Source: a virus (taxonomy: Duplodnaviria > Heunggongvirae > Uroviricota > Caudoviricetes). Taken from it: a DNA stretch of 64,000 nucleotides. Position 1 is the first letter of the stretch, and each line of letters starts with the position of its first letter. The stretch covers positions 1 through 64,000 of the IMG/VR virus record IMGVR_UViG_3300009008_000023; one strand, written 5' to 3'. The position numbers were made by a program, and so were the translations under genes. Positions 8,227 to 61,331 of this stretch are shown here, in pieces. Below the pieces are notes generated by a model. It was given only the letters and a program-made list of their open reading frames with translations. It did no database searches and had not been told where the DNA came from.

Positions 8227-8240
8227 TTGGGTATAAGACT
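8227..8240 (+). promoter_or_regulatory. phage promoter motif (ttGGGTATAAGAct)
   Basis: Member of conserved TGGTATAAGAA family; at divergent junction, precedes plus-strand gene block. Confidence 0.5.
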
Positions 8241-8321
8241 TATAGTGGACGAGGGCGCATTTGCGTCCTTTTTTAGGTATAAGAATTCTGAACAACCAAC
8301 TTTCTTACATAGCTCAAAGGA

Positions 8322-8564
8322 GTGACTATGACACAGCTAAACCAAAAGCATGATTCCATACATGCCAAAATCCAAGATTTATTTACCAACTGGTTCAAAG
8401 ATATGGATGCATACCGACTAGGCACTACTATTGGGGCTACACTCGCTATCTTGGGCTTCATTTTAATGGTACCTGGATTTGCTCGATTAGTTGGGTGGGG
8501 ATTTACCCTAGCTGGCGGATTGCTCGCAGGTTCGTGCCTCGTAGTCCTACTCGAACGCGAGTAG
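8322..8564 (+). CDS. small membrane protein (80 aa)
   Basis: Two predicted TM helices; first gene after promoter motif at 8227. Confidence 0.4.
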   Translation: MTMTQLNQKHDSIHAKIQDLFTNWFKDMDAYRLGTTIGATLAILGFILMVPGFARLVGWGFTLAGGLLAGSCLVVLLERE

Positions 8565-8580
8565 GATTTTTAGGGTAAAT

Positions 8581-10029: not shown

Positions 10030-10042
10030 GTATTATGTCAAC

Positions 10043-10083
<41 letters not shown>

Positions 10084-10329
10084 CTATCTACTCAACACTC
10101 AATACTCACATGCTATGTCCACATTTCCACCACATTCACGGCATAACACACTCACAAAACTCATAAAAACACTCACTCGGCCCACAATTTAAAAAGTGGC
10201 CGGACAGACGGCCACAGTACAAGTCCGTAACTCACATCATCCCAAGTACTTATGTGGCCACCCATATCAGTGGCCGACACGCTAAAGCACAAAAACATAA
10301 ACAACTCAATCATAACACTTTACAAATGT

Positions 10330-10870
10330 TATATACGTCGTATACCACCCATACCACCCGCATACCACCCAAACTCGGTGGTATACACTTAACTCCAACT
10401 CTCTCTTAAACTTACAAAGCTTTTTAAAGAACTTACTATATATGTATATTAACATATTTTTATTATTATATATCTATTTTCTTTTAAAAGCAAATCTTAT
10501 AACACTAATACTTTCATATACTTACAGCATTTTCACACTTACGCCGTCCATGTATACCACCCAAAATCCCCGCGCCATAGGTCCACGTATGCGAGGCACT
10601 ACCTACCCTCTCTACACTGTGAGTATAGATACACCTGGCGCGGCGTTTTCGGGTGGTATAGCGTCACCGGCCGGAGCTAACCCTCTCTCTCACAACAAAA
10701 TATGGCGGCACCCATTTTGAAATGGCCGGGTGGTATGGTATCTATATATAACTTGTAACTTGTTGAAAACACTACACTTAGCTTGTATATACCACTAGCG
10801 TAAACCTCTCAACGCCAACGAATTAACATCATACCACCCAATCTCGGTGGTCGCGGCCTCTAAAGCACAC
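10330..10870. repeat. iteron-like ATACCACCC / GGGTGGTAT direct and inverted repeats in a 1.1 kb non-coding region
   Basis: ATACCACCC at about 10342, 10351, 10362, 10828; inverted CGGTGGTATAC about 10376 and GGGTGGTATGGTATC about 10728; GTGGCC(N)GGCCAC palindromes at 10196-10290. Confidence 0.6.
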
Positions 10871-12997: not shown

Positions 12998-13019
12998 AAT
13001 ATGGGTATAAGAATAATGT
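12998..13019 (+). promoter_or_regulatory. phage promoter motif (aaaatATGGGTATAAGAATAATG)
   Basis: Full consensus incl. downstream ATG; upstream of NAD salvage genes. Confidence 0.6.
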
Positions 13020-13482: not shown

Positions 13483-13500
13483 CCCTAGCAAGGAGACAAC

Positions 13501-14553
13501 ATGGCAACCAATGTAGGAGTAATCATTGGCCGATTTCAGGTTGATGATCTACACCCGGCTCACAGAGCCATTATTGATGAAGTGAAGGACAAACACTCAC
13601 AGATCCTCGTGTTCTTGGGGTGTCCGGCAACATATCTCAGTCAGCGTAACCCTCTGGATTTCTCTACGAGACGTCGTATGATTCAGAGTCATTATCCTGA
13701 TGTGGATGTCTTCCAGATTAAAGACCACAAGCTCGATAGTATCTGGTACCAGGAGCTTGACCGTCGTATTCGAGAGATTGAACCGCATGCTGAAATTACG
13801 TTGTACGGCGGGCGTGATTCTTTTGCTGACTACTATGATGGAGCATTCCCGGTTGAAGTTCTCACAGATATCGAGAACTCTTTCTCTGGCACTGAAATAC
13901 GTGAAAGAGTTGGAAATACTCCTCTCTCAACTCCTGACTTTCGTGCTGGCGTGATCTATGCTATTGCTAATCGTTTTCCTCTTACCCACTTAACAGTCGA
14001 TATAGGGCTAATAAACCCATATCACTCGTCCCCTACAAAGAACTCAAGAATTCTGCTAGGTAGAAAAGAAGGTGATAGGCAGTGGTGTTTCCCAGGCGGG
14101 TTTGTCGATGCAAAAGACGCATCACTCGAAGACGCTACAAGGCGTGAACTCTTTGAAGAGACTGGGTGTCACACTAGCAGTGTGCAAATGTGTAAGTATG
14201 TAGCAAGCTTGGAAGTTGTGAATGATTGGCGCTACAAGAATGAGGTTGATCGTATCATGACGAATGTGTTCCTAATGGAACTTCCACCTAATTCACCTTA
14301 TCTTAAGAACAATGATCAAGGCGAAGAAGGTACAGGCTTACTATCAGAAAATAAACTAAAAGCCAGTGATGATCTTGCAGAAATTCAATGGTTTGATTTG
14401 AAAGAATTTAGCGAGACTCCACATCATTTTGTTACTAATGATCTCATTACAAAGGCTCATCAGCCAATCATGCAAGTCTTTATCGCACATCTCAAAGACA
14501 ACGAGCTCTACGGGCTCGCCAACGATAAACCTAAACCACAGGATTGTGATTAA
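13501..14553 (+). CDS. natV: bifunctional NMN adenylyltransferase / Nudix hydrolase (NadM/NatV-like)
   Basis: N-terminal GRFQ(V/P)xHxxH cytidylyltransferase HxGH-type motif; C-terminal Nudix box GGFVDAKDASLEDATRRELFEETG; strong RBS AAGGAG. Confidence 0.85.
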   Translation: MATNVGVIIGRFQVDDLHPAHRAIIDEVKDKHSQILVFLGCPATYLSQRNPLDFSTRRRMIQSHYPDVDVFQIKDHKLDSIWYQELDRRIREIEPHAEITLYGGRDSFADYYDGAFPVEVLTDIENSFSGTEIRERVGNTPLSTPDFRAGVIYAIANRFPLTHLTVDIGLINPYHSSPTKNSRILLGRKEGDRQWCFPGGFVDAKDASLEDATRRELFEETGCHTSSVQMCKYVASLEVVNDWRYKNEVDRIMTNVFLMELPPNSPYLKNNDQGEEGTGLLSENKLKASDDLAEIQWFDLKEFSETPHHFVTNDLITKAHQPIMQVFIAHLKDNELYGLANDKPKPQDCD

Positions 14554-14997
14554 TGGACCAGTTAAATGATAACCTAGCTGTCATGACCGACAGCTACAAA
14601 GCAGGACATTTTCGTCAGTACCCTGCCGGTACGACGTCAATTATGTCTTATTTTGAATCCCGTGGAGGTTTACCTTACACGGTGTTCTTTGGTCTCCAGT
14701 ACATCATCAAAAAGCACCTTCTTGGTCGGGTGATGACTCAGAAGAAGCTCACTGCAGCACAAATTTTTTGGAACGAGCACTTTGGCGATAATCAGCCTTG
14801 TGGTGAAGATATATTCAATCATAAGGGTTGGCAGCACATCATCGATAATCATGATGGGCATCTGCCTATTCGCATCCGAGCGGTCCCTGAAGGGACTAAG
14901 GTACCTTCATCAAACGCCCTCATTACAGTAGAGAATACTGATCCTGAGTGCTTCTGGCTTACCAATTGGTTGGAAACGTTGTTAGTACAAGTATGGT
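14553..14997 (+). CDS. nadV: nicotinamide phosphoribosyltransferase (NadV/NAMPT), exon 1
   Basis: MTDSYKAGHFRQYP...DGHLPIRIRAVPEG...TDPECFWLTNWLETLLVQVW matches the NAMPT N-terminal region; ends at T14997 before in-frame TAG. Confidence 0.8.
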
Positions 14998-16022
14998 AGA
15001 AATGCCCTTTATGGTGGTAACACCATATCGAAACTTCTCTAATTGCTGGGATATCCTAATTATAGGACGATCAGCAGCGAAGCCTAATCTAATTAGTTCT
15101 TGCATTAGTAAGTATTATTTGTTATATTTACTATAGTTACTAACTAATTAGGAGTTTTTTTATGATAGGAAAACAATTTGGAAACGATCTTGTTATAGAT
15201 AGAAAAGTTGAACAAAGATCATATGGTAAATTAACCCTTTACCTTGTTGAGTGCCAAAAATGTAGCAACAAAAAATGGGTTCAAAAATCCGCCCTAGTTA
15301 ATGGAAATATAAAGTGTAGAGTAGGTATATGTAACAGACAAGTACCTGATTTCACTAATCAAATATTTCATTATTGGACTGCTTTAGAATATGTAAAAGA
15401 TAAAAAATCACGTGGATGGTTATGGAAGTGTAAGTGTAAATGCGGGAATGTGGGATATGTCCGCACTCATACATTACAATCTGGACAATCAAAGTCTTGT
15501 GGTTGTTATATGAAAGAACAACTGTCTCAACGTCAAACACTTACTGACTATATAGGACCAAAACGTGAAATTTATAGAAATTACAATAGAGCCTCTAATA
15601 AGAGAAATTATGAATTTTTATTAACTGAAGAACAATTTTTTGAACTCATTGAACAGCCATGTTTTTACTGTGGAATAGAAAAGTCAATGGTTTTTTATCG
15701 ACAAAACTATAGATACAATGGTGTTGATAGAGTAGACAATTCTATAGGATACACCATAAATAACACAGTGTCATGTTGTAAAAATTGTAATAACTCTAAA
15801 AGTACACTATCTCAACAAGAATGGTTTAATTGGCTTAAACAAGTTTATACCTATCAGAAAGCTCAAGGAACGTTCAACGACTAGTCGAAAGACGTACACC
15901 CAAGTGGGTGGAAATGGGAAGGCTCCTATTAGTTTAGGAGTTTGATATAGTCTGATCTACATAGTAATATGTAGCAGCTCACAAGAGCGGGCTGAGATTA
16001 ACGACCTCAGTTAAACACAATG
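14998..16022 (+). mobile_element. group I intron (1025 nt) interrupting nadV, carrying an HNH homing endonuclease ORF
   Basis: Joining T14997 to A16023 restores the frame and the conserved NAMPT motif VQ(V/S)W-YP(T/I)T(I/V)ATNS; 5' exon ends in U, intron ends in G. Confidence 0.7.
15162..15884 (+). CDS. intron-encoded HNH homing endonuclease
   Basis: C-terminal GVDRVDNSIGYTINNTVSCCKNCNNSK HNH motif; own RBS; AT-rich codon usage. Confidence 0.8.
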   Translation: MIGKQFGNDLVIDRKVEQRSYGKLTLYLVECQKCSNKKWVQKSALVNGNIKCRVGICNRQVPDFTNQIFHYWTALEYVKDKKSRGWLWKCKCKCGNVGYVRTHTLQSGQSKSCGCYMKEQLSQRQTLTDYIGPKREIYRNYNRASNKRNYEFLLTEEQFFELIEQPCFYCGIEKSMVFYRQNYRYNGVDRVDNSIGYTINNTVSCCKNCNNSKSTLSQQEWFNWLKQVYTYQKAQGTFND

Positions 16023-16978
16023 ATCCTACTACAATCGCCACCAATAGCCATATGGCAAGAACTAACATTAACCAGTATCTTGAAGATACTGGTGACCCCA
16101 CACTCATTGACTTCAAGCTTCACGACTTCGGTTACAGGGGAGTATCATGTGATGAGCAGGCCGGCATTGGTGGAATGGCTCACCTCACCTCCTTCATGGG
16201 TACTGATACTGTTAAAGGTATCATAACCGCGCAACAGTATTACAATGCACAGATGTGTGGATTTTCCATTCCGGCCAGCGAACACTCAACCATGACTTCA
16301 TGGGGGAAGGATCATGAGCTTGATGCTTTCCGTAACATGCTCGATCAACATCCCACAGGACTAGTTGCATGTGTGAGTGATTCATTTGACATCTATCATG
16401 CATGTGAACAGTACTGGGGCACTGATCTTAAAGATCAAATCCTCGGAAGAGACGGCACTCTTGTCGTCCGTCCTGACTCTGGTGACCCCATCGAAGTAAC
16501 AGAGAAAGTGTTTGAAATTCTCTGGAAACAGTTTGGTGGAACCACCAATGAGAAGGGATACCGTGTTCTTGATCCCCACATCCGCATGATTCAGGGCGAC
16601 GGCATAGACTTAAATATGCTGGCTATGATTCTTGCCAACTTTAAGGACAAGATGATTTCGGCTGATAACATCGCGTTTGGGTCTGGTGGGGGACTTCTCC
16701 AGCAGTTCAATCGTGATACTGGTCGCTTTGCTTTCAAGTGCTGTCACGCTATTATCAATGGCGAAAGCCGCGACATTTTTAAAAGCCCTATTGCGGGTAG
16801 TAAGCCTTCGAAGAAGGGTTATCTCACTCTACAGAAGAATGATGGTGGCGCGTTCGAGACCATCAATGATAGGGTATTACACTACTCTGATGAAAACTTA
16901 CTTGAGCCGGTTTATGAGAATGGCGTCCTTTTAAAGGATCAAACATTCGCTGAAATAAAAGCTCGTATCTTGGTATAA
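16023..16978 (+). CDS. nadV: nicotinamide phosphoribosyltransferase (NadV/NAMPT), exon 2
   Basis: YPTTIATNSH...KLHDFGYRGVS...GSGGGLLQ... collinear with NAMPT central and C-terminal regions. Confidence 0.8.
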
Positions 16979-17030
16979 GAATAGAGTAAGTAATCTTTCT
17001 TACGCGAAAAGAAGGAGGTGCAATTAACTA

Positions 17031-18636: not shown

Positions 18637-18672
18637 TCCCCAACCATACGCCTCCAAGTAAATGGTTGAAGA

Positions 18673-18712
18673 CTCATCCCCTGCGCACTAGTGTGGGGGA
18701 TGAGTATTTTAC
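18673..18712 (+). terminator. rho-independent terminator
   Basis: CTCATCCCC...GGGGATGAG hairpin followed by a T-tract. Confidence 0.7.
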
Positions 18713-18721: not shown

Positions 18722-18742
18722 TTTTACGGTATAAGATAAATG
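18722..18742 (+). promoter_or_regulatory. phage promoter motif (tttttaCGGTATAAGATAAATG)
   Basis: Directly after terminator 18673-18712. Confidence 0.55.
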
Positions 18743-18957
18743 TTCACCATAACGCTAAAAATTTAGCGTATGGTTTTAGTACCCTTTAACGTAGGAGAAG
18801 GAATCATGCGGTGACAAACAACTTTTATGTTAGTTATTAAAAATATGAAACGAACCAGTAGATTAGGTGTATGAGTTAATCTAGTATTTAATTCTACCTA
18901 GTGGATCCAGGACCTTATTTTGACTAGGGCCCCTGAACATAGCACCTAAATAACTGA

Positions 18958-18982
18958 AGCCGAGTTGTCTCGGTATTTTTAC
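18958..18982 (+). terminator. rho-independent terminator
   Basis: GCCGAGTTGTCTCGGT hairpin plus TATTTTT. Confidence 0.55.
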
Positions 18983-19004
18983 AAAGATGGAATTTACAGA
19001 AGAC

Positions 19005-19039
19005 GGTCGAGGGCAATCCCGCTCTCGACCATTTTTTTT
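19005..19039 (+). terminator. rho-independent terminator
   Basis: GGTCGAGGGCAATCCCGCTCTCGACC hairpin plus T8. Confidence 0.75.
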
Positions 19040-19060
19040 ACCTTAAAAATTGGAATAAGA
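19030..19060 (+). promoter_or_regulatory. phage promoter motif variant (tttttACCTTAAAAATTGGAATAAGAAAA) upstream of sigma factor gene
   Basis: Shares the extended upstream ACCTTAAAAAT element with sites 31240 and 54385. Confidence 0.5.
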
Positions 19061-19100
19061 AAAAAGAAGGAAGTCACACAAAACTTGTTTAGGAGGTTGC

Positions 19101-20012
19101 ATGAAATTAAAGGAATTAGTGGATGCGCGTGATTCAGAGTTTTCACGAACTCTTCAAACGACTTTAAACAAGTACTCAGTACTTTCAAAAGCAGAAGAAG
19201 AGCCCATTGCTAAAAAGGCATTTGAAGGCTGTGAAACTTCAAGAGACTTGCTAGTTTTTCACAATCTTCGATTTGCAATTAAGTGGGCCTTAGACTCTCA
19301 TCAGGGGGCTGGTATAGAGTTTACTGATGCTACATCAGTTTGTATTTTAGGCCTTATTAAGGCATCAAAACGCTTTGATTACCAACAAAACACAAAGTTT
19401 ATTTCATATGCAGTTTGGTGGATGAGGGCCGGTATAACTCAGGCATCAAGAACATCGGACACAGTACTGCTTCCTGCTAATCGTTACACTCAGAGAATGA
19501 AAATACGCACTTCACGTTCTAAACTGTACCCATTGCTTGAGCGTATTCCAACAGTGGATGATATCTCACGCGATACTGGAATCGACGTTGAATCAATTAG
19601 ACTCATTAATAGTCACCATGTTATTAGTATTAATGGTCCCATACAAGGACCGGATAAGTCGGAAAGAGATGACCCTAGATTCCAGAGCGAAGATTTTGTC
19701 TCTTCTTGTCTTCACCCTGACTATAGTGGTTATAACAAACTCGCAGCCCTCAATGCCTTAATTAATACACAAACCAGAGAGCTTATAAAGGAAATAACTC
19801 TCAGTAAAGTGGATCAGCGTGAAGCTTTCATCTTAGATCGACGCTTTGGGTTAGGGTGGTTAAATCCAAGGCATAACGAACCACAGTCTTTAGAGAGTGT
19901 CGGTAAGGAATTGGGGATTAGTCGTGAGCGCGTTCGCCAGCTTCAAGCCAGGGCTATCTCTAAAATTGAAGGTTCATTGGAACGGCTAGATATTACTTCT
20001 ATGGCTAGTTAA
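19101..20012 (+). CDS. sigma-70 family RNA polymerase sigma factor
   Basis: Region 2 signature FISYAVWWMRAGITQA (cf. FSTYATWWIRQAITRA) and region 4.2 LESVGKELGISRERVRQLQARAISKI helix-turn-helix. Confidence 0.75.
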   Translation: MKLKELVDARDSEFSRTLQTTLNKYSVLSKAEEEPIAKKAFEGCETSRDLLVFHNLRFAIKWALDSHQGAGIEFTDATSVCILGLIKASKRFDYQQNTKFISYAVWWMRAGITQASRTSDTVLLPANRYTQRMKIRTSRSKLYPLLERIPTVDDISRDTGIDVESIRLINSHHVISINGPIQGPDKSERDDPRFQSEDFVSSCLHPDYSGYNKLAALNALINTQTRELIKEITLSKVDQREAFILDRRFGLGWLNPRHNEPQSLESVGKELGISRERVRQLQARAISKIEGSLERLDITSMAS

Positions 20013-20040
20013 TTTAAGGGGCTTCGGCCTCTTTTACCGT

Positions 20041-20062
20041 AGATTTTGGTATAAGAATTTTG
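20041..20062 (+). promoter_or_regulatory. phage promoter motif (gattTTGGTATAAGAATTTTG)
   Basis: Consensus match. Confidence 0.55.
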
Positions 20063-20696: not shown

Positions 20697-20796
20697 CTTT
20701 ATTTTAAGGAAGCTTTTTGCTTCCTTTTATCTTGTATTTTAGTTACAATAATAGTAATACAAAATCTTTTAACTTTTAAACTTAATAGGAGATTAG

Positions 20797-21714: not shown

Positions 21715-21738
21715 CCAAATTTTGGTATAAGAAGTATG
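21715..21738 (+). promoter_or_regulatory. phage promoter motif (aaattTTGGTATAAGAAGTATG)
   Basis: Consensus match incl. ATG. Confidence 0.6.
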
Positions 21739-22360: not shown

Positions 22361-22395
22361 AAAATTATCCTTATTAATTGGAATAAGAATAATGA
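22361..22395 (+). promoter_or_regulatory. promoter: TTGACA -35 plus TGGAATAAGAATAATG motif variant
   Basis: TTGACAcgtaaaaattatccttattaatTGGAATAAGAATAATGAGG. Confidence 0.45.
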
Positions 22396-28649: not shown

Positions 28650-29102
28650 ATGACAACAGACAAGCGTCCTAGTTGGGACGAAACGTTCATGAACGTAGCG
28701 CTTGAATTTGCGAAACGTTCTAAAGTAGTAAGTACTCAGGTTGGTGCAGTGATTGTAAAGGACAAGCGTATTATCTCTGTCGGTTATAATGGGAAGGCAG
28801 AAGGGAAACCTGACATACGTATTGGCGATTATGAGTTAGATGACTATCATGCAGAGATGAATGCAATAGGATGGAAAGCAAAAGAGGGTGGGGTCGGTCT
28901 AGAGGGCTCTACCATTTATGTTACTGTCGCACCTTGTCTTCATTGTGCAAAGATAATTCATAGAGCTGGAATAGCCAAAGTAGTATGTAAAATGAAAGTA
29001 GCCATTAACCAAGATGCGTGCCCTGATGGAGTACAGCACTTAAGAGACAATGGCATAACCGTAGTAGAGTATAATGACAACGACAGCACAAGCACAACTT
29101 GA
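28650..29102 (+). CDS. dCMP deaminase
   Basis: HAEMNAI zinc-binding motif and PCLHCAKII second motif of cytidine/dCMP deaminase fold. Confidence 0.8.
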   Translation: MTTDKRPSWDETFMNVALEFAKRSKVVSTQVGAVIVKDKRIISVGYNGKAEGKPDIRIGDYELDDYHAEMNAIGWKAKEGGVGLEGSTIYVTVAPCLHCAKIIHRAGIAKVVCKMKVAINQDACPDGVQHLRDNGITVVEYNDNDSTSTT

Positions 29103-29724
29103 AGTAACCCTATTACAAGCTACACCACTATACGTAGCTGCTCGAGCCATAAGGCACAGCAGAGACTCCTTGGACAAACTAGATACTGAACCCAGTTCTA
29201 ATGTCTTAGGAAAAAAAGATAAAAAGTTAGTAAAGCTAATTTTACAAGAGAAGCATGAGAGTACACTTGAACATCTTTATTATTCTTTTGAGATAAACAA
29301 CATCTCTCGTGCATGTTTAATGGAACTAACAAGGCATCGGATTGCGAGCTACACTGTTCGCTCAACTCGCTATACTCTTAAAAAACACAAAGACAAAGAG
29401 TTAGTAGAATTATACCTTTCAACAGGTAATCCAGAGCTTGATCAAGCAGTTGAGTATAGCATTAAGAAAATGCTTAAGCGCTTAAATAATGGACATGGAT
29501 TTACCAATGATGAATTGAAATACTTAATTCCTGAGGCTTGGTCAACGAGCCTTGTGATGAGTATTAATGCAAGAAGTTTTCGAAACTTCCTTAGTCTTAG
29601 ATTGCCTAAATCAGCGTTTGCTGAAATTCGTAAGTTAGCTTATCATATGTATGAGGCTATGCCGCCTGAACATCAGGAGTCGTTGTATACAAATATAGTA
29701 GACGCTTCTGGGTATAAGAATTAA
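29074..29724 (+). CDS. thyX: flavin-dependent thymidylate synthase ThyX
   Basis: ThyX signature RHRIASYTVRSTRY (RHRx7SxRY). Confidence 0.85.
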   Translation: MTTTAQAQLEVTLLQATPLYVAARAIRHSRDSLDKLDTEPSSNVLGKKDKKLVKLILQEKHESTLEHLYYSFEINNISRACLMELTRHRIASYTVRSTRYTLKKHKDKELVELYLSTGNPELDQAVEYSIKKMLKRLNNGHGFTNDELKYLIPEAWSTSLVMSINARSFRNFLSLRLPKSAFAEIRKLAYHMYEAMPPEHQESLYTNIVDASGYKN

Positions 29725-29746: not shown

Positions 29747-30292
29747 ATGACCAGATTTAAAGCAATAATGTTGCTTGTAGCCATGGCTCTCTTCGGCACT
29801 GCTTCTGTCTCTAACGAGATTGAAGTATACATTTGTCAGCCGGAATTAACTTGGGGACTCGATCTTGATTTTCCTGAGTGTGATCGGCTGTACATTCCTA
29901 CAGCAGAGTATGACGTTAAGATTACGGCCTACTCTAGCACAACTGGGCAATGTGATGCAGACCCACATATTACAGCATCTTTGACTAAGCCAGATAGAGC
30001 AACGATCGCGCTTAGTAGGGACTTTCTCAAGAAATTTGAGAAAGAGTACAAAAAGAAAAACCCTAACCATACAGCACCCTTTGATTGGGGTGATATAGTG
30101 TGGATTGATTACGGAAATGGTCGCAGACATGGACCATTTGTCGTAGAGGATACTATGGCAAAGAGAAAGAAAATGTGGGTAGATTTGTGGCACGAGTCCA
30201 CACGAGAAGCGAAAGAACATGGGTTACGGAAAGGAAAATTACTCTCTTATTACCGTGATCCGAATAAATTAATCCTATCGGACCTCATTTGA
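29747..30292 (+). CDS. secreted 3D-domain (MltA/YuiC-like) protein
   Basis: Signal peptide; TAYSSTTGQCDADP...GDIVWIDYGNG...VVEDTMA conserved-Asp pattern of the 3D domain. Confidence 0.5.
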   Translation: MTRFKAIMLLVAMALFGTASVSNEIEVYICQPELTWGLDLDFPECDRLYIPTAEYDVKITAYSSTTGQCDADPHITASLTKPDRATIALSRDFLKKFEKEYKKKNPNHTAPFDWGDIVWIDYGNGRRHGPFVVEDTMAKRKKMWVDLWHESTREAKEHGLRKGKLLSYYRDPNKLILSDLI

Positions 30293-30316
30293 GGTCCGGT
30301 GGGCAACTTTTCTAAT

Positions 30317-30336
30317 TTTTCCGGTATAAGATTTTT
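30317..30336 (+). promoter_or_regulatory. phage promoter motif (tttttCCGGTATAAGATTTTT) driving the 0.9-kb ncRNA locus
   Basis: Consensus core GGTATAAGA preceded by T-tract. Confidence 0.5.
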
Positions 30337-31245
30337 ATCGTCCAGTATTCTACCTCGTGTGGAGTGCTGGTGATCGGGTGTATGAGCTCGTTAGGATAAG
30401 GATGGTAACATCCCCAAAGATTTGGGATTAGTCCCCCAGGTCGCTTTTTCTAGCCTTCGTGGCCGTGATGATTAAGCCCGATTATAAATTATGTCTTGTC
30501 ACTTCAGACCACCCTGGGCAACGCTGATGGGTATTATTGGTTGGTAAGTGAGGCTTCTCTACGGAGGAGTTGAGTAGGTGAGGGAGCATTTCCAAAGGCT
30601 TAGCGGCTGGAGGGGTGCCGACGAGCCTATAGTGAGGCATCAAGGTAAAGTTCGAGTCGGTTGGTTCCGGCAAGAGCATAAGCCAATCAAGCAGCTAACA
30701 CGGATGGAGACGTTCGGGGGCTGTGCGATAGATAAGTGAACCAACGCTCATCAAGGGTAGGTGTGCTATTCCTGGGATCGAAAGTTCTGGGAGGCGCAAG
30801 GCCCAGTACCTATTCTGACTACTACTTTAATATAAAAGTTCCAATTGAACAGGAAATGTTTATGCGAAAAGACGCTAAAACCTGGTGCCCGGTTGAAGCG
30901 CATCTTAGCTCTATAGTCTAGGGCGGGATGTTCATCAAAGTTGACTACGCAGTGAGCCTTCGGGCAACGAGCTGCGGGGGATGGTTCGGCAAGAACCAAC
31001 CCTGAACCTTAAAAGAGTTTCCTTGATGCGGTCAGCTGCCGCCGATAGGACCCGCTTTTGGGAAAAGAGGCTTCGCCGTAAAAGATTGATTGGCTTAACC
31101 AATTGTCATCGAACCACTACGATTCCCAACCCTTCGGGGGAAAGAGCGTGGATAAGGGGCTAAGGGGAGACCCGTACGGCCAGTGCGCATAGCACGGTAA
31201 TACCAAAGGTGGTTCTAAAAATGCTGTAGTCTCAGGCATTTTTTT
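30331..31245 (+). ncRNA. candidate large structured non-coding RNA (about 0.9 kb), family unknown (GOLLD/ROOL-class candidate)
   Basis: No ORF over 77 aa on either strand; GC content above neighbours; bounded by promoter motif at 30321-30335 and terminator at 31217-31247. Confidence 0.45.
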
Positions 31246-31247: not shown

Positions 31248-31271
31248 CTTAAAAATGGTATAAGATAAATG
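31240..31271 (+). promoter_or_regulatory. phage promoter motif (tttttACCTTAAAAATGGTATAAGATAAATG)
   Basis: Full extended consensus; follows terminator. Confidence 0.6.
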
Positions 31272-31679: not shown

Positions 31680-31694
31680 ATGTATAATTAGTAC

Positions 31695-32351: not shown

Positions 32352-32378
32352 GCCCAAAAAATGGGTATAAGAAAAGTG
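32352..32378 (+). promoter_or_regulatory. phage promoter motif (ccaaaaaATGGGTATAAGAAAAGTG)
   Basis: Consensus match, GTG in place of ATG. Confidence 0.55.
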
Positions 32379-34705: not shown

Positions 34706-34725
34706 CTTATCACAAAGGAGTAAGT

Positions 34726-41683: not shown

Positions 41684-42029
41684 GGATGTTAAAGAGCTCG
41701 TTGAGCTTTTAACTAACTCAGTAAAAATAACAGACGAAACTAAATCAAATACAGTAACACTTATTAAAGACTTGTATGAACAAGTAATTATATTACGCCT
41801 AGAACTAGAATTACAAAGAAAACATCAGCAACTTAGTGACTTTGAACATATTTTATACAAAAAAATGTACCTTATTAAATATGACACGATGGATTTACTA
41901 ACAATTAATACAGCCTTAGAAGGTGTAGAAAAAGCTATACAATGGGCAAAGAACGACGCGAGAGACTTAAAGAAGCCAATACCTGAAAACATAAACCCGG
42001 AGGATTATATTGACTACTTCAACGACTAG
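41655..42029 (+). CDS. hypothetical protein (124 aa), start uncertain
   Basis: ORF overlapping upstream gene. Confidence 0.3.
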   Translation: MPKSIKIAPEDVKELVELLTNSVKITDETKSNTVTLIKDLYEQVIILRLELELQRKHQQLSDFEHILYKKMYLIKYDTMDLLTINTALEGVEKAIQWAKNDARDLKKPIPENINPEDYIDYFND

Positions 42030-42393
42030 ACTTAATTTCGATCTAGCAGAAATGGAAATGCTAGATCGCCTCCACAAACTTTCACGAGATAATAAAGATA
42101 TGCTTCAGTCTGTAGGAGAAGGAGTGTGTTTTTATTGTGGGAAAACTTGTAAATACGAAGACGTTAAGGAATGGGTAGGCAAACATAGTCAAACGGGAAT
42201 GTGCCCTCATTGTGGCATTGACTCAATTATGCCTGTGTATGCGCCTTACATCAAGTCTGAAAAGATTGTCGGAATGATGATGGTTCGTTGGTTCACGACT
42301 GTTAATGAAGATGATACGTTAACTGTTGAACCTGATGCCCTCATCCCAGAACGCTGGAAACAATGGTATAAGAACTATACCGTCGAAGATTAA
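42010..42393 (+). CDS. hypothetical Cys-containing protein (127 aa)
   Basis: CFYCGK...CPHCG zinc-ribbon-like. Confidence 0.35.
   Translation: MTTSTTRLNFDLAEMEMLDRLHKLSRDNKDMLQSVGEGVCFYCGKTCKYEDVKEWVGKHSQTGMCPHCGIDSIMPVYAPYIKSEKIVGMMMVRWFTTVNEDDTLTVEPDALIPERWKQWYKNYTVED
42361..42380 (+). promoter_or_regulatory. phage promoter motif (caaTGGTATAAGAACTATACC) inside CDS 42010..42393
   Basis: Core match within coding sequence; could serve downstream gene 42474 or be fortuitous. Confidence 0.3.
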
Positions 42394-51155: not shown

Positions 51156-51175
51156 TTTGGTATAAGAAGTATGAA
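51150..51175 (+). promoter_or_regulatory. phage promoter motif (taattTGGTATAAGAAGTATGAAG)
   Basis: Consensus match incl. ATG. Confidence 0.6.
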
Positions 51176-51264: not shown

Positions 51265-51346
51265 TCACACGTAGCTAAGTTGGTATAGCAGCGGCCTGTT
51301 AAGCCGCCGGAGAAATCCATCGGAGGTTCGAGTCCTTCCGTGTGAG
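51265..51346 (+). tRNA. tRNA-Asn(GUU) with atypical 14-nt GAAA-capped variable hairpin
   Basis: Acceptor TCACACG/CGTGTGA; D arm GCTAAGTTGGTATAGC; anticodon loop CTGTTAA; variable CGGA-GAAA-TCCATC; T arm GGAGGTTCGAGTCCTTC. Confidence 0.6.
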
Positions 51347-51498
51347 CCTAAAACAATAAGGAGAACAATGGGACACCAATTAGGTATATTTATAATCAGC
51401 ATAATTGCTGGCATGGCCTTAGCATTCGCTATGGGTATTGCTGTGTGGTTTTTCTTGGAATGGATACCTAACAAGTACAAAGCTTTGAGAGGTAAAAC

Positions 51499-54164: not shown

Positions 54165-54227
54165 CCTTACACAAGGAAGAGTATTTAAAGCGTATGGCCT
54201 CGATAGCAGAAATACAATAGTAGTAAT

Positions 54228-54299
54228 GCGCGGTTAGCTCAGCGGGAGAGCTCTGTCTTTACACGGCAGCTGTCACTGGTTCAAATCCAGTACCGCGTA
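54228..54299 (+). tRNA. tRNA-Val(UAC)
   Basis: Acceptor GCGCGGT/ACCGCGT; anticodon loop TTTACAC; T arm ACTGGTTCAAATCCAGT. Confidence 0.7.
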
Positions 54300-54384
54300 C
54301 CTTTTGGGCGTGAGATAAGTTTCGACGGGAGTGGAGACCGCATGCGGAACACTTTCGGACTCGGGGGCGGCACCCGACACGTCC

Positions 54385-54412
54385 ACCTAAAAAATGGGTA
54401 TAAGAATTATGT
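54385..54412 (+). promoter_or_regulatory. phage promoter motif (gtccACCTAAAAAATGGGTATAAGAATTATG)
   Basis: Full extended consensus. Confidence 0.6.
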
Positions 54413-54684
54413 GGAGGAACTAGCTAGTATCTTCACACAAACGCACGCAGAGCGTCCGTTCCTTCATAGTTGCTTCAACAGACGAAGAGAAGGTTCGGTA
54501 ATAGGACCGTGGTATGAAATCTGTACTAGGTTTCCACATATCCCCTTAACTGCCTAGATAAGGGACTCCGGCCGGTGGGTAATACTGGTCACTAAAAAAG
54601 AGAGTATTGTGAAGCGTAGCTCTCGGAGTGCTTGTGACTCTGATATTGCTTCCAGGCGTTCCGCGATCGCCTGATATGCCGCAG

Positions 54685-54712
54685 CGCCCTACGTACGTGG
54701 GGCGGTTTTTTT
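54685..54712 (+). terminator. rho-independent terminator
   Basis: CGCCCT-acgtacgt-GGGGCG plus T7. Confidence 0.65.
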
Positions 54713-54781
54713 CCATGGCAAAGGACCACGAGATAATACAGAAATGGTGAAGGTTGCTGGTCTTACCCTCCCATGCCAAAG

Positions 54782-55235: not shown

Positions 55236-58200
55236 TTATTTATCTCCGAATTCATCTCCATAAATATAAGCAGGGATTGGGTCTTTTCCTGCAATATCTC
55301 CGTATGCAGCTTTGGAAGCACCTTCTTGTATTGCTGCTTTAATTCTATTCGTATAGAAACGTGTTAACCAATCTTCACTATCAACATTTAACGTTTCGAT
55401 TGATTTAAAATACGGTTTATATTTAATTGTGTCAAGACTTTCTTTTGTTCTTTCCTTATTTATTTTATCTAAATAAGAAATAGTTGACTTATCACCGCGC
55501 AAGAATCCGCTATTACTGGGAGCTTCCATAACTTCAGCATTATCTGAAATCCCTCGAATAACAGTTTCTAAGCCCTTTTTATAGAAGTCATCTTCATAGA
55601 TAGTATTAATCTGATCAACAATATACTGTTGTGCAGCTAAGTGTCCTTTATATTCGGCTAATTCTTGAGGTTTAATAGAACCGTTTGTAAGAGGGTCCCC
55701 AGGTGACACCGAATCTCCAACCTTAACAATAATAGTTCTTGAACTTGGAATTGTTATTGTTTTGTCATTCTTAGTCCCATACCCTTCAATTCGAACATCA
55801 TAACCACCCACAACGTTCTTTCGAATTGACTTAACTTTGCCTTTAACGGGAGATAAGACTGCTTTACTCTTAAGTTTTTTAGGTACTTCTAGTAGCTGAA
55901 CAAGTCTTGGGAATCCTTCAGTAACACCGCCGCTAGTACTTACTGCTGCGCCTCCTGTATGGAAAGTTCTCATAACTAATTGAGTACTTCTTTCAGTAAG
56001 GGCTTGTGATTCTATAACTCCAATGTTTTCACCAAGATTAGGTAATTGACCGTTTGGCATTAATCCATAACAGAGTTGGCAAACACCGTTAGAAGTTTTA
56101 CAAGTTAGGGGACTTCTTACTTCCACTGTTTGTACTTTTGCGGCTTTTAATTTCATTAAAATACGCGAATCAATCAAATCGTTCTTTTTTGCAACGCCTT
56201 TTATTGACTCCGCTAAGTGTCGGTCCATTACATCTTTAGAATTCACCGAAAGCTCAATACCTTCATGAGTTTTACAGTCTTTTTGCGTTACAAGTAATCG
56301 ACGTGTTACACCAAGCAACGCTTTATTAAGTGCTCCAGAGTCAGCAGTGTTTACCGCTCGGTCAACTGTTCCTCGACGTACACCATAGATGTGGTTCCAG
56401 TAACTTGCTGTATCAATTCCCTCACCATATGATTTAAGAATGGGTACAGGGATTGGGTTACCATCAAGGTCTTGCACAACTCCAGGTAAAGATAAGATCT
56501 GCCGTACATTACCTTTTTTACCTCCACCAACACTGCCAGACTCAATCATTTCATAAATATTATTGGTTTTAGCTAAGGCTTTATCCTGGGCTTTTTCAAC
56601 TTTACTCGTTAAATCAATATAAGCATTAATTCTCGCAGTGCCTTTTAGTTTTTCAATTTTCGGTAATTCTTTTTCATACAATTTATCACGATAAGATTTA
56701 TCTTGCACAAAGTCAGTGATAGAGATGGTATGTGATCGTTGATGCGCATAAGTGTTACCAAGCTCTTTAAATCTATTTGCAACTTTACCAAAATCAGAGC
56801 GATACTCTTTACCAATCTGCTCAAACAATTTGCCTACAGCTTTTTTATTCATTTGACGAGTATAGTTTTTAAGTGCTGTAGGTAATACTTTATTAATTTC
56901 GTACTGCCCAATAGTCATCTTCTTACCGTGTAAAGTAAAGACATCAGTTGGGTGTAACCCCGCCGCTTTGGCTTCCGTTATTGATTTAAATGTTTTGCCT
57001 GTGGCTTTACCAATCTTACTTAAATAGTAAAGACCGACGATGTACTCTTGAGAAATTTCTGGTACAACAGAGTTATCACCGTGTTTGAAGATAATATTAC
57101 TAGGCAGAATCTTATAAGCTTCGGTTACAGCCTCCGCACCAACAGGCACATGAACTGCCATAGTATCACCATCAAGGTCAGCATTGAAACCAGAGAAAAT
57201 TATGGGGTTAAGTTTAATTGCTTTACCATCAACTAATACGGGTTTAAATGCTTGTATACTATGTTTATGTAAACTAGGCGCTCTGTTAAGTAATACAGGC
57301 CGATCTTTCACAATTAATTCCAATGCTTTGTCAGCTAATTGTGTGTCTTCATTTACTTCTTGAAGCGCTTTACCGGCTTTCATTCCCTGTCTTACAAGCT
57401 CTTTAATAATAAAAGGTTGGAAGATAGTTTTAGCCATACCCTTAGGAATACCAACTTCATCAATTCCCAGGTCAGGTTCAACAGTAATGGTACTTCGTGC
57501 TGAAAGTTCTTGTCGTCTCCCCCACGTAGTTGAGTGAACGAATCCGTGCTTAACTTGTTTACCAGTAAGCTCTTTAATTATGCCTTTGTATTTCTTTTGT
57601 GAATAAGTAACAGGGTCAATAAATCCTTGTTGGGCTTTTATCGCTTTGTACAAAGAGTGATCATATTGATGTTGCTCTTCTTGGCTTAATTTAGCTTTAA
57701 TTGCTTTATAGTTAGTATTAATAACGCCTATGTCTCGATAGTGCTGATTAATATCAGACACCATTAAGTCACCACTTGGTAGTGGATAAATTGGTCGATA
57801 CACAGGAGGTAATACAGGAACAAATTTTGTTAGGTATGCTTGTGTAGGTGTATATCCTAAGTCTTTAAGTGCTTCTAGGTATCTTACTTTATTATTAAGT
57901 TTATTAATATTAGATTCAGGGGCATCTTTCAATTCTTTTCGAAGTTTTCGCAGTTCAGTAGTAATATCAATAGATTTTAATCCCGCTGTAATTGCATCTA
58001 CACCTGTTTTACCATCTAACTCAAGTTCACCTGCCATTACTTTATCAAACTTATCTTCAGTTAAATCTAAGAGTTTGGTAATCGCTCCTTCATACATTGG
58101 ATTAGGAAGCTTTTTAACTAAGTTAATATGAGTCCACTTTTCACCAGCTAGACCACCGGTTATCTCTCTATCAAACAACCCGCCTTTACGTTCTGCAAGA

Positions 58201-61200
58201 TTCTTACCTTTAAGCATAGCGCCTGGGTCAGTTAACTCACCGGCAGACCATTCTTTAATAGTAGTGTCTGTTAGAGGGAAGATTCTAAATTTACTACCCT
58301 TCTTTTCAACATTAACGCCTGCGGCTTTTAAGTAGTTAACCATTTTATCAAATACAAAGTTAGACTCAGGTGGAGCTGGAGCTAATCCTAGTTGTAAATT
58401 ACGCCAATACTCATCATTCTTTCTACCTTTAATAGTAGACATTTCTTTAAGAAGATTTTTAGTGCCATGTGCTAACATAGAGTAAGTAAGCATCGGGTCA
58501 ATTTTTTGTGCGCCTTTACCTACAGGCAGTTCGTTAATATCGTAAGACCCGAAGGAGTGCTCTCCCGCTTTCTTCTTAACAATATGACGCAGTTTCATAA
58601 AGTACTGATTACCTACAAAGATGGACTTTTCAAAGGGCTTCCCTGTAGCTCCGTCAGTTAAAGTTTCATTAGCTTTAATACCAAGCTTTTTCATTTCTGC
58701 GTAAACTTTTGTAGCATTATCATCACCAGAGAAACTTTTAACTAAATAGGGCTTACCTGTTTTCTCAGCAATCTTTCCGGCAGCAGTTTCTAATATCTGT
58801 CCAATATTCATACGTCCCGGAATACCGTGGGGATTAACCATAATATCCACAGAAGTTCCATCTGGACGATGAGGTGCTTCTGAGTCAGGGATAATTTTAG
58901 TGATAATAGATTTGTTTCCAAACCTACCACTTAGTTTATCTCCCTCTTTAAAGGGGTGAACAGCTTTAATATAAATATCAATATTACGTCCATTTTGACG
59001 AACGTCAATTACTTCTCCTGCCTCTTCTTCATCCCACTCAAGTACCTTTTTAACAAAAGGCGCCATTGTAGCTTTACTGAGTTTTCGAATAACTTTTTCT
59101 TCTTCAGATAATTCCCGTTCTTCTAAAATTGCTACAAGTAGTTCTCCTAGCTGAAATATTTGGCCCTTTTTAGGAAGACCTGTATCCGCTAGTTTTTGTT
59201 TATTAGTTTTAGTTAAAATTCCTGGATACCAAGCAATAAACTTTGAAACATCAAATTGAGTTTTCGCGGGTGTAATAAATAAGTTCTTTTTGTGTAAAGC
59301 TGAATGGCTCAACTTTTGTGCAGCACTCTCAGTAATTACAGCACCATCTTCAAAGTTATACCCTTTCCAAGGCATGAAGGCCACTGTAAGGTTTTTACCG
59401 ATAGCTAAAGTACTGTCTTTATTATAGTTATTGTCTGCTAGAGGAGTATTCCACTTAACTTTATCGCCAACTTCCACAAGTGGGGTGGAGTTTAAGAAGC
59501 CTTCCTGATTAAGTGGGAAGTCCTTATATAATCCACGTTTAACAACTTCACCGTCAGTATCTCTTTTAATAAAAATGTAATCTTTAGTGATTTTAGTTAT
59601 TTCACCTGTAGGTTTAACAACTTTACCATCAACTTCTTGCTCGCCAAGAATAGGGTCTAAGAACCCACCAGCGAGCTCTTCAAAAGTACTATCTTCACCA
59701 AGCTTAGTTTGTACTAAAGGAGCTTCTCTGTCGATTAAGGGCAAGGCTTGCTGAATCATTCGTCCACCCATAGAAGCACGGTTACCTTGTGTATTCTCTA
59801 TAAAGGGTACAAGGTTTGTAGGTATTGAGAACATAGAAGATGCTGAGAATAGGTAGTAATCCACTTCTTTCGGTAGAACTTCTTTAGTGTGTCCTTCATG
59901 ATAGATTTTAACTTTAGGATTTTTTGCTCGAACATTTCCACCAGAAGTTATTTTGTACTGGTCAGGAAACCCTACTTTACTAAAGTAAAATGTTTTGGGT
60001 GTTATGTATGTCTTTTTACCCTCTTTATTAATAACGAGGGTTTTAATATTTCTACCCTGCTTAAGAGTATCCAGTGAAAGCCCTAGTGTGATTCCTACTT
60101 TACCACTTTCTGGAGTAGCTAATGAATCTAAGAATCCCAAGTGTGTGGGGTGCACATTACGAGTTTCCATAGTCACTGCGTGCATAGATCCAATACCACC
60201 TGTACCCATAGGTGAAGTCTTTCGCCAATCGCCTAAGATGGTCACAGGATTCGTTTGAGGGGGCGTTGCGGACAGGTCACTGTCAGTGAAGAAGCTTTTA
60301 ACAGGCTTACCAAAAGTAGTAGAAGAAATTACTTCCCGAATTTTGTCTTTAAGGTCAAGGTTACGACTTAACTTTTTAGTAATCACTTCATTCTGTTTTT
60401 CGAAGTGTGCAACCAGCAAATCATCAACAGCATAGATTTGTTTGAATAATAAGCTGTCTCGGTCATCCGGCTCAGCTTTGCCTTTTTCAATGTCTAATAG
60501 TTTAACTGAGGACTTTAGAAGTAAGTCACCATTAACATTTTCTTTCTTTTCACCTAGCGTTATTTCTGTAACTTCAGGATCAACTTTTGCATAGGATCCA
60601 AAATATTTTCTAAGCCCAGCAATAACTTCATTATAATCTGCAGGAACTTTTTTATAGAGCTTCTTGTAGATATTAGTCATTTCGCTAACTTCAGTATTCA
60701 GCGCGCCCTTTTTATTAATCTCTACAAGCTTGGCTCCCCATGCCTCAGTAATTTTATCATCGCCTACGTTTAGGACATTAAGCAGTGTCCATAGCCTGTG
60801 TTTACGATTATCAAAGATCACATAGAAAATGTGTGAGATAGGGTCTAGCTGCATCTTAAAATTGTAACCAGGGAATAAGTTAAATTCATTTTCTAACTCA
60901 CCGTTAGCTTTAACTCTAGCATAAATGCCTGGTTTACGACGTATCTGATTAGTGGTTTGGTATTCGTTACCATCCAGGATAACAGTAAAGCGATTAGTTA
61001 ATTTAGGGATATAACCGATACGGATATTTTCCCGTTTATCAACGGTCTTTCCTGTTTCATTATCTGTGAGCTTGAATGAAGCTAGAATCGGAACTTGCCA
61101 ACTCTTACGATTTAGCTTCAATTCTCTCTGTGTTGGAAAATCATTGCTTTCGAGCTTGTCATCTAAGCGTAACCCAGTGAGTTCCAATTGTTTACTTTTA

Positions 61201-61298
61201 CTCTTGATTGGGAAGCTGTTATTTATTATATTAATAACAGTTTCTTGGATGACTCTGTTTTGCTCACGATGGTTAAGGGCGTTGTCCATTAATTTCAC
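55236..61298 (-). CDS. single-chain multisubunit-type RNA polymerase: fused beta (N-terminal) and beta' (C-terminal) catalytic subunits, 2020 aa
   Basis: Beta motifs [16 protein letters not shown] (cf. ANRALMGANMQRQAVP) and [21 protein letters not shown] (cf. [20 protein letters not shown]); beta' motifs [48 protein letters not shown] (cf. RAPTLHRLGIQAFEP...NADFDGDQMAVHVPL). Confidence 0.85.
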   Translation of the reverse strand: [2020 protein letters not shown]

Positions 61299-61305
61299 CT
61301 TTTAG

Positions 61306-61331
61306 TATTTTTTTGGTATAAGAAGAATGAG
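61306..61331 (+). promoter_or_regulatory. phage promoter motif (tttttTTGGTATAAGAAGAATGAG) at divergent junction next to RNAP gene start
   Basis: Consensus match incl. ATG. Confidence 0.6.

Follow-up and report, generated by a model that had tools for sequence, protein, structure and literature searches.

A rigid -10-like motif and candidate promoter in phages that encode a cellular-type RNA polymerase

The recurrent motif and its setting

The DNA analysed here (the window, 64,000 nt) comprises positions 1 to 64,000 of the virus record IMGVR_UViG_3300009008_000023 (Caudoviricetes), and the element in question is a 9-mer, GGTATAAGA, which recurs in it. The window has a G+C content of 39% and contains 22 tRNA genes between 33.7 and 54.3 kb. 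It encodes RtcB, an RNA ligase, NAD-salvage enzymes and a PurZ-like enzyme, and its genes are directed leftward in 1-8184 and in 54.5-61.3 kb and rightward elsewhere. A search with 12 kb of the window gave no nucleotide match among INPHARED phages. One open reading frame (ORF) joins the domains Rpb2_6 and Rpb2_3 of the beta subunit of multisubunit RNA polymerase (RNAP) with Rpb1_1/2/3/5 of the beta' subunit on a single chain, and its catalytic motif reads NADLDGD in place of NADFDGD. The window is therefore part of a large uncultured phage with its own cellular-type polymerase. In this RNAP a coiled coil resembling the beta' clamp helices is retained. The clamp helices are the usual docking site of sigma, and the coiled coil at their position might conceivably serve the same end. 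An RNAP-encoding lineage of Caudovirales, 'mReC', has been described from sequence (PMC7481178). The 2020-aa ORF supplies one mark of this lineage, homologs of beta and beta' on a phage contig, while others are a place in the deep-branching phage RNAP clade and T4-like MCP and TerL. To judge by its RNAP sequence the phage appears to fit that description; the contig names of its relatives (see below) are absent from the supplements of PMC7481178.

The 9-mer is present in 17 exact copies, where 0.68 +/- 0.90 are expected from dinucleotide-preserving shuffles. This count was reached by 0/100 shuffles, and GGTATAAGA is the top 9-mer of the window by over-representation. Two extra sites (19052 and 22380) read GGAATAAGA and have flanks as in the exact sites, giving 19 sites in total; one decayed copy, GTTACAATA, lies besides these at 20742..20750. 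The initial annotation had listed 15 positions, and all of them carry the motif, 13 as exact GGTATAAGA and the remaining two as GGAATAAGA. Its statement that all sites are on the plus strand did not hold, since 4574 and 5323 on the minus strand had been missed, together with 8276 and 16972 on the plus strand. The proposed 16-mer consensus TGGTATAAGAAKWATG was over-specified (4 exact matches, 3 of them on the plus strand). The longer word TATAAGAnnnATG, attributed to eight sites, is indeed shared, with 9 occurrences (7 plus, 2 minus; 0.37 expected). Similarly, the extension ACCTTAAAAAT directly 5' of the motif, assigned to three sites, is found without mismatch at 19040 and 31246 and with a single mismatch at 54385.

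All 19 sites point along the local genes (two-sided p about 4e-6), because the two minus-strand sites fall in the leftward gene block 1-8184. The strand correction thus strengthens the promoter reading. Of the exact copies, 13/17 are intergenic, though ~86% of the window is ORF by a crude map (P = 1.6e-8); the other four lie in the last ~30 nt of the preceding ORF or in doubtful ORFs. The ORF maps behind these statistics are crude, and coverage amounts to 64 kb of this genome and 13-26 kb per uncultured relative. Terminator-like hairpins with T-runs were found by a scan just 5' of 8276, 18728, 19052 and 30323, and by eye terminator-like hairpins were seen 5' of 4574, 20048 and 31257. The earlier observation that sites often directly follow terminators is borne out at seven or more positions, and the genes beyond such sites need a fresh transcription start. 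At about 12 sites a start codon preceded by a Shine-Dalgarno (SD) sequence follows 18-100 nt 3' of the motif; the initial annotation had given 20-60 nt.

From its sequence context, GGTATAAGA is very probably a promoter of some kind. The motif could instead act without initiating transcription, as an RNA-level signal for processing or stability in 5' leaders or as a binding site of a phage regulator. Its strand specificity, its position in 5' regions and the terminator-like hairpin within 20 nt of site 8230 would suit such a function. However, many sites lie just past strong intrinsic terminators, where little upstream transcript would exist. The motif also precedes tRNA and non-coding RNA (ncRNA) units, is not palindromic, and combines a -10-like sequence with a -10-like spacing to a pyrimidine/purine step. 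We therefore regard a non-promoter function as very improbable.

The anatomy of the element was derived from alignments of the 17 exact window sites and then of 37 distinct sites from the window and its uncultured relatives, combined in one logo. The sites in the 37-site logo were picked as exact matches, which in part accounts for the invariant 9-mer there; yet one-mismatch forms with matching flanks number just two in the window, plus one decayed copy, against 17 exact sites. The six positions 5' of the 9-mer are A/T only and mostly T. On the 3' side follow A, t, w, a and then T and G, the T in 15/17 and the G in 14/17 window sites. In sigma70 numbering the motif would read T-rich(-20..-15), G-14, G-13, TATAAG(-12..-7), A-6, a/w/w/a, T-1, G+1, where the conserved T/G falls at -1/+1 because TATAAG is numbered as the -10 hexamer. 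A pyrimidine/purine step at -1/+1 is the usual start preference of multisubunit RNAPs. G-14 and G-13 are invariant, T-15 is present in 9/17 window sites and 22/37 clade sites, and the core holds ~17 bits of information, flanks excluded.

The sites lack a -35 element. Positions -37..-30 of the 37 sites hold no information, and the best TTGACA match with spacers of 15-19 averages 2.89/6 at the 19 sites, compared to 2.94 at random positions. The expected -35 region is often taken up by the preceding terminator. At -7 the motif has G in place of T in 17/17 exact window sites and in all sites of its relatives, including the phages D181 and Arash described below, while A-11 is kept. Sigma70-type factors strongly prefer T at -7, and Salmonella and Vibrio use TATAAT. 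The invariant G-7 is the feature that sets the motif apart from every housekeeping consensus.

Conservation with the polymerase lineage and a second promoter class

Relatives were found by searching IMG/VR and metagenomes with the polymerase, and in the case of L096 via a neighbouring protein. Six distinct uncultured relatives were obtained (L001/L004/L014/L092, L012, L002, L003, L005/L013 and L096), whose RNAPs are 45-58% identical to that of the window and which have few other proteins detectably in common with it. Only L012 was newly found as a close relative by the metagenome scan, whose ~75 other loci were bacterial rpoBC and served as negative controls. The relatives carry GGTATAAGA at the place of window site 61315, just 5' of the RNAP start and pointing away from it. 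Each has one to four further copies directed with downstream ORFs, a primase and a ClpP-like protease among them (the direction of L012:23759 relative to its downstream gene was left out of the comparison). In the closest relative, L096 (SPFH protein 73% identical), 13 kb contain five copies. Four are syntenic with window sites 13004, 16972, 18728 and 20048, and the fifth lies where the window has the decayed GTTACAATA. In bacterial rpoBC loci GGTATAAGA occurs twice in 1.3 Mb. The more distant RNAP relatives L006 and L015 (35% identity) have no motif in the 5-11 kb covered, which are mostly the RNAP gene itself, and pattern-based IMG/VR searches with the sigma and NAMPT proteins of the window found no relatives. 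In L001/L004 (10001-16027) the otherwise colinear RNAP gene contains a single in-frame TGA at codon 740, which could reflect a sequencing error, readthrough or recoding.

Full-length RNAP matches among deposited phages are confined to three from Vibrio, D181, D148 and D69 (29% identity); the match in Salmonella phage Arash spans 70% of the query at 31% identity. A tblastn comparison of all window ORFs with Arash and D181 revealed only about ten proteins in common. Blind k-mer enrichment of upstream regions in D181 (OZ196140.1) returned GTTATAAG / TATAAGTA as top words. The element G[T/G]TATAAG[T/A]AAyATr occurs at about 20 intergenic sites of this phage, all on the minus strand, which is the strand of the non-structural genes and tRNAs, and no motif sites are found in the structural blocks. 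Arash (OQ632216.1; 53% G+C) has 31 GGTATAAG copies, 30 of them on the non-structural strand, with the consensus ctGGTATAAGtaaaGTgtaa; for the looser pattern G[GT]TATAAG, both strands counted, the expectation is about 9. Both phages show intergenic enrichment at P ~1e-11. In control DNA 19 copies were counted over 1.29 Mb of rpoBC loci from bacteria and 24 over 0.94 Mb of further viral loci with a sigma gene. Over these 2.2 Mb the background amounts to one copy every 39-68 kb, whereas these phages have one every 3.5-6 kb.

As in the window, the D181 and Arash sites have TATAAG after G[G/T], no -35 and a T-purine step 5-6 nt downstream, and both phages encode a beta/beta' RNAP and sigma-like proteins. 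The G-K-TATAAG core and its T-purine step 5-6 nt 3' are thus conserved although the RNAPs are ~30% identical and the hosts include Salmonella and Vibrio. In both phages the motif also keeps to the strand and the blocks in which non-structural genes and tRNAs lie. Differences concern motif position 9 (T/A in D181/Arash, A in the window lineage), the upstream tract (C/T-rich in Arash, T-rich in the window) and the RNAP itself, which is split or interrupted in D181/Arash and fused in the window. The D181/Arash form GGTATAAGTAA contains the core TATAAGTA of the yeast mitochondrial nonanucleotide promoter ATATAAGTA, which serves a single-subunit polymerase of T7-like type; we saw no such RNAP here and regard the resemblance as coincidental.

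A second conserved upstream motif, cTAAAATA(TAg), which may be a late promoter, fronts structural genes and RNAP genes in D181 and Arash and is often paired back-to-back with a GGTATAAG that points the other way. Whereas the RNAP genes of these two phages sit among structural genes behind cTAAAATA, that of the window has a TTGACA/TATAAT-type promoter. We considered whether ACCTTAAAAAT is a copy of this D181/Arash motif; the pattern is too low in complexity to tell, its window matches being scattered through coding sequence. At 61340-61361, 27 nt 3' of site 61315, the window contains CTTAAAATATAG inside a perfect inverted repeat (CTTAAAAT..ATTTTAAG) that overlaps the -10 of the RNAP-gene promoter on the opposite strand.

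Sigma70-type -35/-10 matches as a whole are not enriched in the window. The few excellent matches are intergenic and aimed at genes. A textbook promoter had been described before the HNH gene, and it is a 12/12 match; others are TTGACC-17-TATAAT before a 690-aa gene, TTGACA-17-TATATT before a 579-aa gene and TTGACA-18-TATATT before an Hsp20 gene. An equivalent of the canonical promoter before the RNAP gene is kept in all relatives (TTGACA-17-TATATT in L001, L012 and L092; TTGATT-17-TATAAT in L002, L003 and L005), with spacers that are unrelated among them. The TTGACA at 17 bp in all relatives and the unrelated spacers speak for a genuine -35/-10 promoter here and against the reverse strand of a cTAAAATA-type motif. 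These phages have two promoter classes, and GGTATAAGA is distinct from the canonical -35/-10 class. Since the window and its relatives hold canonical promoters as well, G-7 is not simply the local consensus.

The machinery that may read the motif

With no -35 and G at -7, the motif stands outside the housekeeping -35/-10 class. In form it is like the single-element promoters, independent of a -35, that serve phage-encoded sigmas or polymerases, and it is also similar to extended -10 promoters. Extended -10 sigma70 promoters have the form TGnTATAAT, and Thermus phage P23-45 reportedly uses middle/late promoters without a -35, a small phage protein being said to disable -35 recognition by the host RNAP. 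Like these, the motif is a single -35-independent element of the -10 region with an upstream G-14 and a -10-like distance to the start. An extended -10-like promoter read by the host sigma70/sigmaA holoenzyme, either unmodified or remodelled by a small phage protein, would accommodate the invariant G-14 and the frequent T-15 (TGG-TATAAG), the AT/T-rich upstream tract, the early/middle-type functions of the driven genes and a distance to the conserved T/G that suits a sigma70-family open complex. Unlike extended -10 and P23-45 promoters, the motif has invariant G-7 and G-13, the latter no requirement of the extended -10 family, is far more rigid, and belongs to a phage with its own polymerase. 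The G replaces T-7 at each of about 90 sites in four clades with differing hosts, Salmonella and Vibrio included. The same genomes have good TTGACA/TATAAT promoters elsewhere, and a near-invariant 9-mer of about 17 bits before flanks is atypical for housekeeping promoters. Reading by the host holoenzyme is therefore unlikely.

Phage-specific systems offer further comparisons. The T4-type late promoter TATAAATA, read by gp55/gp33 on the host core, is likewise a short A/T-rich element at about -10 without a -35, and it has TATAA in common with the motif (6/8 positions match). The motif falls outside the T4 late class all the same; its sequence is TATAAGAA, G at position 6 is invariant, and GG is required upstream. 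T4 late promoters serve late structural genes, whereas the motif fronts NAD-salvage, sigma, primase and ClpP-like genes, tRNAs and ncRNAs, and avoids structural blocks in D181 and Arash. Pfam and PHROG scans of selected window proteins identified no gp55-like protein; among those beside the RNAP or behind canonical promoters (690, 579, 408, 132 aa and others), the same scans gave neither a function nor a gp55-like or sigma-like match. The phage sigma gp36 of phiEco32 reportedly recognizes the single-element promoter TAATGTATA. This phage and the jumbo phages phiKZ and AR9 resemble the present case in encoding a specificity factor or polymerase of their own, in the short and rigid consensus and in a temporal cascade, which for our phage is proposed from sequence; they differ in promoter sequence, and the jumbo enzymes are split where the window has a single 2020-aa fusion. 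The multisubunit RNAPs of phiKZ and AR9 consist of split beta/beta' subunits (PMC7598289). While the concept is familiar, the consensus, its breadth across the lineage and the -7 G are not described in the literature searched. Neither the 9-mer nor TATAAG-type phage promoters were reported there, and matches concerned primers and unrelated systems.

One candidate for the specificity subunit is the sigma70-family protein encoded in the window, which could redirect the host or phage core polymerase to GGTATAAGA. It is complete (regions 1.2-4) and carries the substitutions Q437->A, H455->N and E458->T (E. coli numbering) at positions which we take to contact the upstream end of the -10 and the extended -10; a weakly related sigma is likewise found among the non-structural genes of Arash and D181. 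On the other hand, its closest homologs are bacterial RpoD-like proteins, mostly of Aquificota (35-38% identity), and it keeps the -35-reading residues RERVRQ of region 4.2, though the motif has no -35. The terminator-promoter-sigma cassette (window 19031-20040) is missing at the syntenic place in L096 (10560-11085), a phage that keeps the motif at four to five syntenic sites. Moreover, the promoter of the sigma gene is itself a motif variant behind a terminator, which poses a bootstrapping problem. For these reasons the window sigma is probably not the subunit reading GGTATAAGA, a role we consider quite improbable for this bacterial-type cassette. As a reader it would be better suited to the canonical -35/-10 class. 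In Arash and in D181 there are two sigma-like proteins each. Arash gp196 and D181 gp244 (42% identical) lie among non-structural genes, are weakly related to the window sigma and lack RERxRQ; Arash gp10 and D181 gp11 (44% identical) lie inside the structural module. A counterpart of either pair could be encoded outside this window. A profile-based IMG/VR sigma search, by a method that needs exact peptide words, gave among its top matches only sigmas of <=34% identity and none on the relatives' contigs.

The proposal of a dedicated promoter class apart from sigma70 is backed by the genomic context of the motif, the missing -35, the coexisting canonical promoters and the conservation across phages. 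Considering the two-class structure, the conservation with the RNAP lineage across hosts, the invariant G-7 and the ~17-bit rigidity, we give a probability of roughly 60% to GGTATAAGA being the core of a -35-independent, -10-type promoter that is read by phage-encoded transcription machinery. Its -10-like geometry suggests a sigma-family specificity subunit. We infer both the start, about 7 nt past the G of TATAAG, and the identity of the reading enzyme. The overall scheme would be T7-like, in that a polymerase acting at canonical promoters makes the phage polymerase, which then serves GGTATAAGA. In a first step a host sigma70-type holoenzyme, as the simplest candidate, would read TTGACA-17-TATAAT and transcribe the fused RNAP gene and a few others. 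The phage polymerase, with a putative sigma-family specificity subunit conserved in the lineage, would then start at GGTATAAGA promoters. These would drive non-structural genes, namely those for NAD salvage and RNA repair, the sigma cassette and part of the tRNA array, as well as ncRNAs including a GOLLD RNA (see below).

Several points weigh against this reading. The only sigma in the window is an RpoD-like cassette and probably not the reader, and the motif, whose G-14 is invariant and which has T-15 at about half of the sites, is similar to an extended -10 element, so that a host holoenzyme could bind it to some degree. The RNAP genes of Arash and D181 sit among structural genes behind cTAAAATA, and the 64 kb analysed here do not extend to the structural genes or their promoters. 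Arash virion preparations contain RNAP subunits and a sigma, the sigma-like gp10, and also many plainly non-structural enzymes (PMC10585845, which makes no mention of promoters). Given these enzymes in the same preparation, packaging of the Arash RNAP in the virion is not established. The order of the cascade may differ, with an injected polymerase acting on early promoters, or may vary between clades; in Arash and D181 an injected enzyme could use GGTATAAG for early genes. More tentatively still, GGTATAAG(N5)T-R may be the cognate promoter of a deep-branching phage beta-beta' RNAP lineage (marine uncultured phages, D181, Arash), read via a sigma-like subunit in which the -7 pocket accepts G instead of T.

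Predicted transcription units marked by the motif

The sites and the associated genes, promoters and RNAs are compiled in Table 1.

Table 1. Motif sites and associated features of the window (L-numbers denote uncultured relatives)
Feature	Position	Strand	Context
GGTATAAGA	4566..4574	-	after terminator-like hairpin; 67 nt before 92-aa ORF 4498..4220, then metallophosphatase gene
GGTATAAGA	5315..5323	-	63 nt before ORF 5251..4994
GGTATAAGA	8230..8238	+	divergent intergenic region; followed by hairpin and T-run 8251-8275
GGTATAAGA	8276..8284	+	directly behind hairpin 8251-8270; 43 nt before ATG at 8328
GGTATAAGA	13004..13012	+	5' of NAD-salvage block (Nudix/NMNAT, NAMPT); syntenic with L096:4616
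GGTATAAGA	16972..16980	+	overlaps NAMPT stop; 50 nt before ORF 17031; syntenic with L096:8892
GGTATAAGA	18728..18736	+	behind terminator 18672-18705; heads ORF-free unit of ~290 nt; syntenic with L096:10628
Variant GGAATAAGA	19052..19060	+	behind terminator 19005-19030; 40 nt before sigma gene
Sigma70-family gene, regions 1.2-4	19101..20012	+	3' of variant GGAATAAGA site
GGTATAAGA	20048..20056	+	behind terminator-like hairpin; before ORF 20083; syntenic with L096:11016
Decayed GTTACAATA	20742..20750	+	GGTATAAGA at this place in L096 (11733); behind terminator common to both
GGTATAAGA	21724..21732	+	intergenic
Variant GGAATAAGA	22380..22388	+	79 nt before ORF 22468
GGTATAAGA	29711..29719	+	last codons of ORF 29074-29724; 27 nt before ORF 29747
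GGTATAAGA	30323..30331	+	behind terminator 30274-30303; predicted promoter of GOLLD RNA
GOLLD RNA gene	30332..31245	+	914 nt; 5' variable domain about 30337-30753, 3' conserved domain 30754-31238
GGTATAAGA	31257..31265	+	directly past GOLLD 3' end; 37 nt before ORF 31303
TTGACA-17-TATAAT	31660-31688		before HNH gene at 31695; 12/12 match
GGTATAAGA	32364..32372	+	18 nt before ORF 32391
GGTATAAGA	42365..42373	+	last 30 nt of ORF 42010-42393; before ORF 42474 and tRNA-Gly
GGTATAAGA	51159..51167	+	before tRNA-Asn (51265-51348)
GGTATAAGA	54397..54405	+	heads ORF-free unit 54411-54712, with terminator 54685-54704 and T-run at its end
Fused beta-beta' multisubunit RNAP gene	55236..61298	-	2020 aa from first listed start; ATG at 61291
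GGTATAAGA	61315..61323	+	diverges from RNAP gene start; kept in L001, L002, L003, L005, L012 and L092
TTGACT-17-TATATT	61345..61373	-	before RNAP gene; equivalent kept in all relatives

At 8230-8284 two GGTATAAGA copies are placed 46 nt apart with a GC-rich hairpin and T-run between them. If this hairpin terminates, a promoter at 8230 would yield a transcript of only ~30 nt, and the arrangement may be attenuator-like or a decoy.

Two ORF-free units behind motif sites had been proposed to be ncRNA genes. For the first this is supported by a full-length match of its 3' part to the GOLLD RNA family (RF02032), which covers model positions 1-416 of 416 with 81.3 bits (E 3e-21 locally, 1.8e-19 window-wide). 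The score is below the Rfam gathering threshold (150), and the unit is thus probably a divergent GOLLD member, with its own predicted promoter and terminator. The model match begins about 416 nt past the predicted start, and the last model hairpin with its U-run is the predicted terminator. As described in PMC12286853, GOLLD RNAs are found close to tRNA islands in phages; they exceed 800 nt, and conservation is lower in the 5' half, which spans about 420 nt. The window unit agrees in its full 3' domain, a length of ~900 nt, a variable 5' part of ~420 nt and its phage location, and its tRNA array begins 2.5 kb downstream; it differs in its divergence and in the predicted dedicated promoter and terminator.

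In the second unit (54411-54712) no ORF is translatable from the predicted start. It ends in a strong terminator and its fold is slightly more stable than that of shuffles (z = -2.1). It matches no family, homologs were not detected in the relatives examined, and it is an ncRNA candidate only. A third ORF-free unit, 18741-19035 (+), absent from the initial annotation, lies immediately 5' of the sigma cassette; it runs from the motif to terminator 19005-19030 and is partly conserved in L096 (10637-11015). Here an SD-preceded mini-ORF, ATG CGG TGA at 18806, is conserved in L096 as well, and the unit has no Rfam match.

Next to the second unit, ARAGORN at a lowered threshold predicted a permuted transfer-messenger RNA (tmRNA) across 54210-54765, which borrows the 3' half of tRNA-Val and was rejected as spurious. 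A tRNA-like element that ARAGORN missed lies 5 nt past tRNA-Val, at 54306-54392 (+), and ends in ACC. It has an acceptor stem GGGCGUG/CACGUCC with a G3:U pair, the tmRNA-typical UUCGACGGGA and a non-canonical T-loop that matches the alpha-tmRNA model (E 5e-4 in a 501-nt search); a short hairpin stands in place of the mRNA-like part, and the fold z-score is only -1.5. This could be either a degenerate tRNA or a 'TLD-only' RNA akin to tmRNA. Within the tRNA array, the tRNA at 34629-34706 (+) has the anticodon CTA of an amber suppressor (labelled 'Pyl' by ARAGORN). TAG ends 26/118 crude ORFs, so that no recoding is obvious in the window.

Among the genes behind the motif, NAMPT is split into exon 1 (14553-14999) and exon 2 (16025-16978) on the plus strand; the L096 ortholog (479 aa) is uninterrupted, and the exons match its residues 8-159 and 161-475. 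The insert of ~1025 nt contains a 240-aa ORF (15162-15884) without a family match and a weak group I intron match (15760-15974, E 0.02). The insert probably represents a group I intron that carries a homing-endonuclease-like ORF. Further upstream, 10030-10850 is ORF-poor, with a (GTAA)n microsatellite of about 10 units (10045-10085) and about nine GGGTGGTAT copies in both orientations. The strand switch at 8.2 kb is close by, as is the minimum of cumulative GC skew (~12-14 kb), and the region looks like an iteron array, a candidate replication origin or regulator-binding region.

Outside the phiKZ/AR9 group, phages with a cellular-type beta/beta' RNAP have been described only from sequence (PMC7481178). 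A rigid, lineage-wide candidate promoter that avoids structural genes provides a concrete target for what these RNAPs transcribe and how they find promoters, and the cultured members Arash (Salmonella) and D181 (Vibrio) make the promoter reading testable. In an otherwise unannotatable genome the motif marks out transcription units, and it reveals the GOLLD RNA and two further ORF-free units. If a sigma-family factor reads it, G-7 would be a natural example of re-specified -10 recognition, and a short, strong and orthogonal promoter-polymerase pair would have practical value. Should the lineage-wide reading be true, these phages would run a host-independent transcription programme, possibly begun by a virion-delivered enzyme in some members, which would also make GOLLD and other structured RNAs.

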